A stretch of 64,000 nucleotides of DNA from Octopus vulgaris (taxonomy: Eukaryota): NCBI GenBank assembly GCA_951406725.2, contig OX597819.1, positions 100,688,001 through 100,752,000 of the forward strand, written 5' to 3'. A program made the position numbers and the translations under genes. Positions 4,329-22,775 of this stretch are shown one piece after another (within the stretch, counting starts at the first letter, position 1; each line of letters opens with the position of its first letter). The notes below the pieces were generated by a model. The model was given only the letters and a program-made list of their open reading frames with translations, was not told the origin of the DNA and did no database searches.

Positions 4329-5778
4329 CGGTGATGCTCGATTTGTAGTAAGAATTTCTCTTCCTTATAATGTCAAGTTCAAATCTTTTCAATAAGCTAG
4401 ATTATTGAAGTTCACATCAGTAATATATTTCGGTGAATATTATCGATCTGCAGTAGCGCTACAAGACACTTTTCTTCTTTTCGTGATTGCTAAATATAAA
4501 TAAATTATACGACTATAAGATCATAAGGATTTGGTAAAGAGCTAATAAAATGATATATAGTTTCCCAGTTCTGTACTTTACAGCTCTTTGCTGATATTCC
4601 TTGACGTTAATAAAAGAAGCGCTATTAATATAATGATACTGATATAATCTGCTCTAACCCTGTCACATTAAAAATAAAAACCTCTTAGGCTTCAAATGAA
4701 ATTCATTAAATACATTCTTCTGAGATAGCCGTATTTCTTCAAACCAAAAACGAAGAATTATTTTTAAATTAAGCATAGATCTGCTATCCATAGATTGAAT
4801 CCATTTATCTAATAGTGAAACTTATCTCTGTTGATCACCGAACGTTAGGAAGCTGTTTATAATGTGTGGCCACAAGTGGATGGGCAAATATTGAACGAGA
4901 GGCCGAAGTAAAAATGAGAAATTAGAAATCTCATTGAACCAGTGTAACGGTGAGAGGAAATATTAGCCATTAACCTTAACTAATTAGAAGTGATTCCAAA
5001 TAAAAGACACACAGCCATTAATCCTAATTACCAATTTGGGAATCGTTCCTATAAAGCAAAACACTGGCATAGGTCGAAAGCTAGAATGCAATTAGCCGGG
5101 GGACTTAATTAGGATAATGTTTCGTTAGTACTAGTAAAAGTCTGTGCTTTGTTATGAAGAACCTAATCGAGAAGGGTCATTTTGTGATTAGATTTCGCCT
5201 TAGGTAGACATTCTTGCTAATAGTTCTGAAATATCTGACTGTCGTTAGAACATTCTAGGAATTTGCTTTAAATCAGCTCGCAATTTTAAATTGTGTCTGA
5301 CAGAATTCTAACGGGTATCTAAGTGTTATATTAATGGATAATTGTTAGGTATTGTGATGTGCACAAGGTCGACTTACCCGTACTTCGTAATTAATGATGG
5401 GCATAATAAATAAATTAACAGTAGCTTTTATTGATAAACGGCCAGACGTGATAAAGCATTGGAAGCAGGCCAACTTTAATTCAACTCCCAGTAGTAGCAC
5501 GAAGCGTAAATTTTGAAATGAAACTTTTACTGGAAATTACGAGAAAATTATAAAATATATTAAGAAAAACTAGAACCATGTTCCAGTGCATGTATCACTT
5601 GATATTTATCTTCAAGTGTGATCATGATTGATGTATTTATTAATCTATGGAATACGTTTTCTTCATATAAATCATTCATGCTTTAGATTCCTTGCGATAA
5701 TAGTTTAATAACATCGAGAGCAACGTCATAAGTAAAAGGAAATTTAAATAATTTACAGTGTAAACTAAAAGATAAATA

Positions 5779-18774: not shown

Positions 18775-19378
18775 AGCTAAACCTAGCTAGAATCGAAACC
18801 ACATTTCAAGGTTTACATAGCCTCAATTGCAACCGATTGGGCCAAAATCTCACCCATCAATTTCACCCAAATTTTATGGATATGCACTTTAACTCTCTAA
18901 TAATACATATAATATTTGTAAACAAACTCGAAATGTTTTGTAAGTTACGGAGGCGTGTAAGCGTTGATATCTGTGCTCGATTCCGGCTAGGGTTAGCTCA
19001 TAATTTCCAGTCAATTGTTTATATAAAATGTCCCTTTAAATCGGAGAATATATATTATTATTATTATTGTACTAAGGGACAACAAAATTCGCTTTCTATC
19101 TGTAACTTACAAGGCCTCTAGGGTACTATTATATTTTGGGTACTATTATATGTACTATTAGAGAGTTAAGGTATATATTTCGCTGAAATTGATGGGTAAG
19201 CGTTTGGCACGATCGGAGGCGCATGAAGCCTGATAAGCATTCATATATGGGTTCGATTCTGGCTAGAGATATATCTTTTATTTTTCTGTCAATTTTTGAT
19301 ATAAAATGTCGCTTTAAATCGGAGAATATATATTATTATTATTATGATATATTAATATATAGTTATTATTGTACTAAA
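18775..19378. repeat. Decayed inverted-plus-direct repeat structure
   Basis: 18780-18914 is an imperfect reverse complement of about 19141-19270. 18978-19076 is directly repeated at 19253-19378. Confidence 0.7.
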
Positions 19379-19454
19379 AGTCTTCCGTGGCTGCTTGCGC
19401 TACATAAACTACAAAATTTTTGTGCTTGCTTACAAATATTATATATATATATAT

Positions 19455-19795
19455 AAAACAATTGCAGCGTGGAAGGTGTTTGTAAGCCATTTAAGAAACA
19501 CACAAAAGCCGTTCGATTCACTTCAACATTTAAGTTTAATTTGTCAAAATATTTTTGTCGCTAAAATCCGCGACCTGTTCACTGACAAAAAATCCGTGCT
19601 GCATTTTTGTCAGTGAACAGGTCGCGTATTTTAGCGACGAAAATATTTTGACAAATTAAACTTAAATGTTGAAGTGAATCGAACGGCTTTGTGTGTTTCT
19701 TAAATGGCTTACAAACACCTTCCACGCTGCAATTGTTTTCGTTTCAGCACACGGTCTCAGATTAAATCACTTGCTATGCGAGTACATCTCCGTAA
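19455..19795. mobile_element. Foldback element in (TA)n with ~137-bp inverted arms, a 12-nt spacer and a 56-nt tail; probably PLE-derived
   Basis: 19455-19591 is a near-perfect reverse complement of 19604-19739. Each arm contains an HHR-architecture motif. Confidence 0.85.
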
Positions 19796-19803
19796 TATAT
19801 ACA

Positions 19804-19856
<53 letters not shown>

Positions 19857-21497: not shown

Positions 21498-21588
21498 CAT
21501 GCACAATGCCCATAGATAAGCACAAGCACACACATATACATATTTACATACATACATACATACATGCATACATACATACATACATAAA

Positions 21589-21622
<34 letters not shown>

Positions 21623-21654
21623 CATACATACAAACATACATACATACATACATA

Positions 21655-22775
21655 CATGCTGTCCAACTCAGGTCTTACACAACATCGATGATATCCTAAA
21701 AGCCTTGGGAACAGGTTCGAACTCTGATGTCATAAATAAAGCGTTTGACAGAGTCGACCATAATATCCAACTCTCAAAATTGACAAATGTTGGAATCCGT
21801 GGAAAACTAGTAAACTGGATTGAGTATTTCCTTGAGGAGAGAACACAACATTTTTTGATTGGTGGAAACCAGCAAAAGTCAGCAGTGATGTCCCTGAGGG
21901 GAATGTCGTCTCTTTATAGTCTATATAAACGGCCTTTCCTGTATCATAAAACACAACAAGGTGAAAATATTCGCTACTGATTCTCTAGTCCCAGAAAATT
22001 ATCAATGAGGAAGAAGACCGAACTGAACTCCAGTCTAATCTACTTGCGGTGAGTTAATGGGCACACAAAAACAAAATGCAACTAAACGAGAGAAAAATTG
22101 AACTGATGCATTTTGGAAGAAAGACTATACTAAAACAGCCATACTCTCTTCCTTCAGAGGGAAGCACACACATCATCAAATAATATCAGAGACCTAAGAG
22201 TAATTGTTGACAATAAACTCAGATGGAGTACCTATAGTTCCTAGGATGAGCTTTTGGATCCTAAGAACATTCCGGTCGAGAGAACAAGGTGTCATCATTC
22301 CTCCTTTCTCTTCATTTCTACGCCTACACCTTGAGGACTGCTGCCCCCCTGTGCTCTCCCCATATAAAACAAAACATTTCGAAAATTGAATCACGCCAGA
22401 TGACATTCACTAAATAAATTAGGGGCATAACTGATCCCGATTATTGGGATCGCCTCAAAGCATTGAAACTCTACTCTCTCCAGCGCTGCCGTGAGCGATA
22501 CATCCTTGCACGTTGTGGAGAATATACAATCAGCATTGGTCAAACGACCTCAACGTTAGCTTCAACATTTATTCAAGTTTAGGACGACCCCTACCCAATT
22601 CAGGATCAGAGCACATAAATACATTTCAATACAATTCTTTTCCTCAACAGGCCCTGCCCTATATAACATTGTCCCAAAACGTATCAAAAAAGAAAAGGAT
22701 CCCATCACCTTTAAAGGGAATCTGAGCAAATTTCTTCATGGAATACCAGATATGTCACCTATACCTCTACTATAA
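21655..22775 (+). pseudogene. Decayed CR1-like LINE reverse transcriptase fragment
   Basis: KAFDRVDHNIQLSKLTNVGIRGKLVNWIEYFL, WILRTF, RLHLEDCCP and LKLYSLQR remnants with frameshifts. The 3' half is homologous to 60507-61171. Confidence 0.9.

Follow-up and report, generated by a model that had tools for sequence, protein, structure and literature searches.

The locus and its features

The 64,000-nucleotide stretch of Octopus vulgaris DNA analysed here (contig OX597819.1, positions 100,688,001 to 100,752,000; hereafter the window) contains a 285-bp palindrome (19455-19739) whose arms differ by two mismatches and one gap, and whose length is that given in the preliminary description of this DNA. 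The right arm, together with the tail that follows it, is 95% identical to both pseudo-LTRs (pLTRs) of a full Penelope-like element (PLE) copy found elsewhere in the genome, L189, whereas the left arm is an inverted second copy without the tail. The apparent 12-nt loop of the palindrome is the 5' end of this inverted copy. The right arm carries a hammerhead-like motif, and the ATG at which the element ORF likely starts lies about 50 nt downstream of it. The features of the locus are as follows:

19440..19454, no strand: (TA)n target microsatellite, left flank (sequence reading)
19455..19604, minus strand: inverted second copy without tail (blastn of L189 to 19604->19455)
19540..19589, minus strand: mirror hammerhead with a G12A change at 19556, predicted to be inactive (sequence and alignment)
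19604..19795, plus strand: main arm, a 5'-truncated pLTR copy of the PLE plus tail (30 of 30 fetched loci end there)
19606..19612, plus strand: stem I, 5' strand (sequence reading, fold)
19613..19619, plus strand: core G3-U4-G5-A6-A7-C8-A9 (GUGAACA) with swapped 3-8 pair (G3 at 19613, C8 at 19618)
19620, plus strand: extra G between positions 9 and 10.1 (sequence reading)
19621-19625/19634-19638, plus strand: stem II, 5 bp, with G10.1-C11.1 and an 8-nt loop (sequence reading, fold)
19639-19642, plus strand: G12-A13-A14-A15.1 (GAAA; sequence reading)
19642-19647, plus strand: helix III, palindromic AAUAUU (sequence reading; dimer model energy)
19648, plus strand: U17, with the predicted cut at 19648/19649
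19649..19655, plus strand: stem I, 3' strand (sequence reading, fold)
19704..19795, plus strand: first 92 nt of the element ORF from its likely start ATG (the frame from this ATG leads into the element protein in L188 and L189)
19740..19795, plus strand: tail of about 56 nt between two preferred 3' ends (inferred reverse-transcription start sites)
19796..19840, no strand: (TA)n target microsatellite, right flank (sequence reading, locus comparison)

Elsewhere in the window, a 74-bp direct repeat (18994-19067 and 19272-19345; 88% identical, 278 bp apart) lies to the left of the palindrome and is probably part of another repeat family, and the second half of an open frame at 21588-21980 (plus strand) resembles, by eye, what we take to be a LINE reverse transcriptase fragment.

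A hammerhead layout with a swapped 3-8 pair

The plus-strand sequence at 19606-19655 has the layout of the minimal type I hammerheads of PLEs, with G3-C8 replacing C3-G8. It displays their marks, viz., a three-helix type I arrangement, the extra nucleotide, G10.1-C11.1, a palindromic helix III and an NUH site. Positions 3 and 8 form a Watson-Crick pair and all the other core letters are canonical, while GUGAACA departs from the literal CUGANGA core. The minimal type I geometry with this core, as set out in the preliminary description, agrees with the sequence, and its stems I and II are those of the minimum-free-energy (MFE) fold (-15.4 kcal/mol, z -2.63; 3 of 200 shuffles equally good). The same description placed a mirror copy with a G12A change in the left arm, which is likewise borne out; G12 changes strongly reduce the rate of hammerheads (PMC8495972).

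A relaxed hammerhead descriptor (positions 3 and 8 free, stems of at least 4 bp) matched twice in the 64-kb window, at 19606-19655 and at a weak T3/G8 site, and five times in 20 Markov-shuffled windows, none of these five with a Watson-Crick 3-8 pair. An Rfam search of 19440-19795 returned no hammerhead family among its 24 matches (E<=10), which are of hairpin or miRNA type and lie under their gathering scores; for the whole window there was no hammerhead among the matches listed (150 of 525), most of which are microsatellite-driven miRNA matches.

The host element is a Penelope-like retrotransposon

The unit continues upstream at 564 places in the genome, and several of those fetched reach an ORF with reverse transcriptase (RT) and GIY-YIG motifs. 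In L189 it occurs as direct repeats at 1235-1425 and 5496-5682, 4.26 kb apart and flanking the ORF; both read G3-C8, and the arrangement in L188 is similar. A third copy (L190) has a 1025-aa open frame with DKSG and YVDD, RT motifs read by eye, and a C-x3-C-x2-C linker just before the GIY-YIG domain. The latter was recovered by Pfam (PF01541, 25.5 bits against a cut-off of 22.6); no RT model matched in the Pfam search of the element protein, and a PDB search with a protein alignment gave one weak RT match (E 0.001). The unit is the pLTR of an EN+ PLE with an RT plus a GIY-YIG domain at the C terminus, the features of this class being present: a single RT and GIY-YIG ORF, flanking pLTR repeats, an inverted 5'-truncated copy and an optional tail. 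The linker and the other features described suggest a Neptune/Nematis-type PLE.

Long (CATA)n/(CA)n microsatellite-like DNA lies between the ORF stop and the hammerhead (L189:500-1200 and L062); given such DNA inside its own 3' region, the element may spread microsatellites through the genome. An O. vulgaris dynein regulatory complex subunit 6-like isoform (P0069) matches 15% of the element protein at 66% identity, perhaps as a transposon piece within a gene model.

G3-C8 is the state of a large family

A pattern of core, stem II and GAAA has 5,290 exact matches in the 2.8-Gb genome and none in the reversed control, as against 224 matches for a base other than G at position 3 and 336 for a base other than C at position 8, both counts being from patterns that differ slightly in loop range and flanks. 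For a sample chosen independently of the core, a 27-mer lying downstream of the motif was matched to the genome (7,736 matches); the first 100 of these yielded 97 distinct arms that are partly dependent, several sharing one rearranged form. Among the arms reaching the core, thus chosen by downstream sequence, G3 is found in 71/72 and C8 in 78/78. The genome-wide copies hence confirm GUGAACA plus GAAA as the family state, the check that the preliminary description had proposed. At least two loop-II subfamilies have this core in common. Contigs from four sequencing runs, with four organism labels, cover the unit; their loose-end consensuses carry the same core, and among the matches listed none has an alternative letter at position 3 or 8. 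No U3-A8 or A3-U8 subfamily with the same stem II was evident among the matches listed (first 100 of 336).

Two local arrangements were seen alongside. Three same-strand copies about 3.4 kb apart (G000:C2:171239235, 171242645 and 171246100) all read G3-A8, forming a tandem array in which the 3-8 pair is broken. In six loci (L089, L092, L124, L126, L130 and L150) an identical rearranged head-to-head junction is found, which suggests that a single palindromic copy was later multiplied as such, perhaps carried by a different mobile element.

Related families and the origin of the swap

Canonical minimal hammerheads gave 157 matches in the genome (control 4). The 170 matches of a further pattern (control 0) include older G3-C8 copies, in which N7, loop II and helix III are different. 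Because core-based patterns impose the core state, a second search was made by downstream DNA only. For the older family, nine of 30 loci were legible (21 illegible), namely the query, seven with G3-C8 and one with G3-T8. For a sister family, 19 of 30 were legible, comprising the query, 14 loci with C3-G8, two with T3-G8 and one each with A3-G8 and C3-A8, and none with G3-C8. Sister loci lie behind remains of a homologous ORF (L208, L209 and L224; in L321, 43% over 253 aa), and in two metagenome relatives (45% and 29% identity) a C3-G8 motif lies close behind the ORF on its 3' side. Outside the lineage, G3-C8 was found in none of nine metagenome loci, of which two have a clear hammerhead, both C3-G8.

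Given the sister loci behind homologous ORFs and the two metagenome relatives, C3-G8 is most likely ancestral. As G3-C8 is common to the older family while the sister family has C3-G8, the swap is inherited and compensatory. From the old G3-C8 family to the young one, N7, loop II and helix III differ but the core is constant; helix III is palindromic in both (AAUU in 6/8 old copies vs AAUAUU in the young ones). For stem I of the old family, eight decayed, pattern-picked copies lend weak support to a compensatory change. We propose that G3-C8 probably arose once and was then kept while the loops changed; as a probably single ancestral event, the swap counts as one data point. The preliminary description had taken the two changes as covariation rather than decay: G3-C8 with GAAA is indeed the family state and is shared by the older family, but it probably reflects a single inherited event rather than many.

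Position 17 is U in both G3-C8 families and C in the sampled sister family. An engineered G3-C8 hammerhead was more active with G17 than with C17 (Kalweit and Hammann, data not shown, PMC3884650), and the U17 of the G3-C8 families would fit avoidance of a G3-C17 trap, but U17 is also found with C3-G8, in L268. Canonical minimal hammerhead families are many, several with a palindromic helix III (first 100 of 157 matches, L208-L237). Some canonical motifs come in tandem pairs at a short distance (206 bp for L215/L216, 223 bp for L197), which could be retrozyme-like.

Copy ends and the formation of the copies

In coordinates where q1 is 19604 (q values above 192 being alignments that extend into common TA repeats), the 97 arms fall into two 3'-end groups, at q131-137 (40/97) and at q184 or beyond (48/97), corresponding to sites near ORF nt 36 and 92; inverted arms end mostly at q131-137. 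The 5' ends cluster at q-13 to -10 (30/97 arms). A G precedes the AGAUG start in 25 of 38 short copies vs none of 31 copies extending upstream, which have C instead (examples with the extra G, 13-14 nt upstream of window 19604, are L003, L023, L024, L029 and L116). The base before this extra G varies (T in 12, A in eight, C in five). A G added at the 5' end of retrotransposon copies fits reverse transcription of the RNA cap. With the extra G of the copies taken as such a cap, transcription would start about 13 nt upstream of the main arm. The classifier of solo versus inverted copies is imperfect, its solo class (15/21 with G) including several inverted junctions, and some extra Gs may come from an inverted arm rather than from a cap. 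A splice-site reading of the sequence upstream of the unit (CUAAC...UUUCUCAG|AUG) was rejected in view of the variable base before the extra G and the lack of a shared first exon; on these sequence features a start site with a copied cap is preferred.

The copies often have an inverted 5' partner and mostly lie beside (TA)n or AT-rich DNA. We propose that nicked AT-rich DNA would prime the element RT at either of two internal positions, one near ORF nt 36 and one near nt 92, from which it would copy back to the cap; this would give rise to the thousands of copies of about 210 bp. The palindrome of the window would be two cDNAs of the same RNA end, one per start site, lying head to head in (TA)n, and we read it as the usual inverted tail-less 5' copy of PLEs. 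The genomic copies, by their additional 5' G and their two tail ends, support in a second PLE clade the internal-initiation model that was demonstrated in vitro with the anole element.

Two other readings of the unit were weighed against this one. The 285-bp palindrome might itself be the unit, a foldback or MITE-like DNA element or a miRNA-like hairpin in which the hammerhead likeness is incidental; its near-perfect inverted arms and the miRNA-type Rfam matches, though below their gathering score, point that way. However, across the 30 fetched loci the inverted arm is missing, or variable in length and junction, from copy to copy, and related families have a canonical hammerhead in the corresponding position. 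This reading, to which we assign a negligible likelihood, is refuted by the variable junctions together with the pLTR-ORF-pLTR organization of L189. Alternatively, the unit might be a stand-alone non-autonomous retrozyme- or SINE-like family, cut by its ribozyme and possibly passing through a circular RNA of about 210 nt, as the excess of 7,736 pLTR 27-mer matches over 102 RT-stretch candidates could suggest. Against it, the copies span the inferred start site to the tail ends and not the interval between two cut sites, the pLTR of ORF-bearing copies and the unit share about 95% identity, and the 30 loci contain no head-to-tail array, the sole same-strand pair (L018/L019) being 797 bp apart. 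A non-LTR retrozyme is described as head-to-tail tandem units with a hammerhead in each (bioRxiv 10.64898/2026.07.22.740005); such units were not found among the 30 loci and 97 arms, where copies are solo or inverted. This reading is largely refuted and very improbable. The pLTR of a PLE, copied from its internal start sites, is hence the reading that we retain. It also bears on the earlier suggestion of a variant element family missed by CUGANGA motif scans: such a scan would indeed miss GUGAACA, but the motif is a PLE pLTR hammerhead and not the mark of a separate element family.

Does the swapped motif cleave?

The predicted cut is spanned by 91/97 arms, and no pile-up of genomic 5' ends was found at 19648/19649, where one of the 97 arms starts. 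From their ends, the short copies appear to have been made from RNA that was capped and had not been cut. We nevertheless propose, with a probability of about 0.62, that the swapped-core pLTR hammerhead retains slow self-cleavage, for which it would probably have to dimerize or be helped by a protein. Where read-through gives a transcript two pLTRs, their AAUAUU palindromes would pair and the G3-C8 pair would position the 2'-OH of C8; a cut after U17 would then release a unit-length RNA or separate the cap from the ORF. The swap and the UUU site would slow cleavage, leaving most RNA uncut for reverse transcription. An engineered C3G/G8C double mutation brings back part of the cleavage of a PLE hammerhead that depends on its protein for activity (PMC11167929), the rescue by G3-C8 being partial in published work (PMC11167929, PMC8495972), and minimal PLE hammerheads cleave poorly even with a canonical core (PMC4209133).

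The same element and ancestry would also accommodate a catalytically dead motif, in which the swap drifted to fixation and the fold was retained as a structure of the 5' UTR, as a site for protein binding or as part of the internal promoter. The derivation of the copies from uncut RNA and the UUU cleavage site speak for a dead motif, as does the dimer fold (-27.2 kcal/mol), which is unfavoured, being less stable than two monomers (-29.4) or the cofold MFE (-30.7). So do reports that the hammerhead-less Naiads reach very high copy numbers (PMC8557442) and that, in the anole PLE, cleavage is not required for insertion, hammerhead mutants still inserting in vitro (PMC11167929). On the other hand, only positions 3 and 8 depart from the canonical core and together restore a Watson-Crick pair, for which the rough odds with two random changes among 13 core positions are about 1 in 230, and the core and the palindromic helix III persist in the old and young families while the loops change. 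Moreover, RNA reads of the anole element likewise lack cut ends, although its canonical hammerhead does cleave when protein is present (PMC11167929). As the anole element too uses uncut templates while its hammerhead cleaves, uncut genomic copies do not separate a weak motif from a dead one. We regard a dead motif as a serious possibility, albeit one that falls short of even odds, and favor slow, assisted cleavage.

Either way, more than 5,000 copies with a fixed G3-C8 core share the genome with canonical sister families, which provides a natural pair for asking what role the hammerhead has in PLEs. G3-C8 has served as an engineered control for the 3-8 pair; if the octopus motif does cleave, it would be a natural ribozyme that standard searches overlook. 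CUGANGA-based counts are too low: 5,290 G3-C8 matches stand against 157 canonical ones, about 30 to 1 by patterns that differ in strictness. It is tempting to speculate, although we consider it rather unlikely as a whole, that the natural G3-C8 hammerhead is an attenuator setting how much capped RNA is cut as opposed to translated or copied, with U17 avoiding the G3-C17 trap, and that it represents a hidden, recurrent PLE class missed by CUGANGA scans, maybe also in clades deemed hammerhead-less.

Comparison with known systems

The literature surveyed on 3-8 variants, which excludes Lünse et al. 2017 and most figures and supplements, contains G3-C8 in engineered form only and U3-A8 as a natural state. 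A natural G3-C8 hammerhead core thus appears to be new, with priority not certain: Lünse et al. 2017, on small PLE hammerhead variants, may already report it. The closest counterparts are the PLE hammerheads of Cervera and de la Pena 2014 (PMC4209133), with which the octopus motif shares the pLTR location, type I organization, an extra nucleotide after position 9, G10.1-C11.1, a palindromic minimal helix III, an NUH site and thousands of mostly solo copies. That work reports C3-G8 plus a U3-A8 variant in Schistosoma, whereas the octopus motif has G3-C8; further, its extra nucleotide is G as opposed to H in the published consensus, and its 7-bp stem I is unlike that of the published hammerheads. 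None of nine GUGA occurrences in the supplement of that work is a core. The natural U3-A8 hammerheads (Perreault et al. 2011, PMC3088659) are likewise natural compensatory changes of the 3-8 pair, but they involve two transitions and retain a purine at position 8, while G3-C8 involves two transversions and places a pyrimidine there.

The Poseidon PLE of Anolis (PAc; Frangieh et al. 2024, PMC11167929) resembles the octopus element in having a hammerhead beside the ORF start, an uncut RNA template, two RT start sites in the 5' end of the ORF that define the tail, and AT-rich targets. It differs in that G3-C8 is a laboratory mutant with partial rescue in PAc and the natural state in the octopus element, which further belongs to a different PLE clade, has a tail of about 56 nt and carries its hammerhead wholly upstream of the ATG. 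With the Neptune/Nematis EN+ PLEs (Craig et al. 2021, PMC8557442) it shares an RT followed by a C-terminal GIY-YIG domain, a CX2-5CxxC linker, the inverted 5'-truncated copy, the tail and the targeting of microsatellites, and it is set apart from them by the non-canonical core of its hammerhead.
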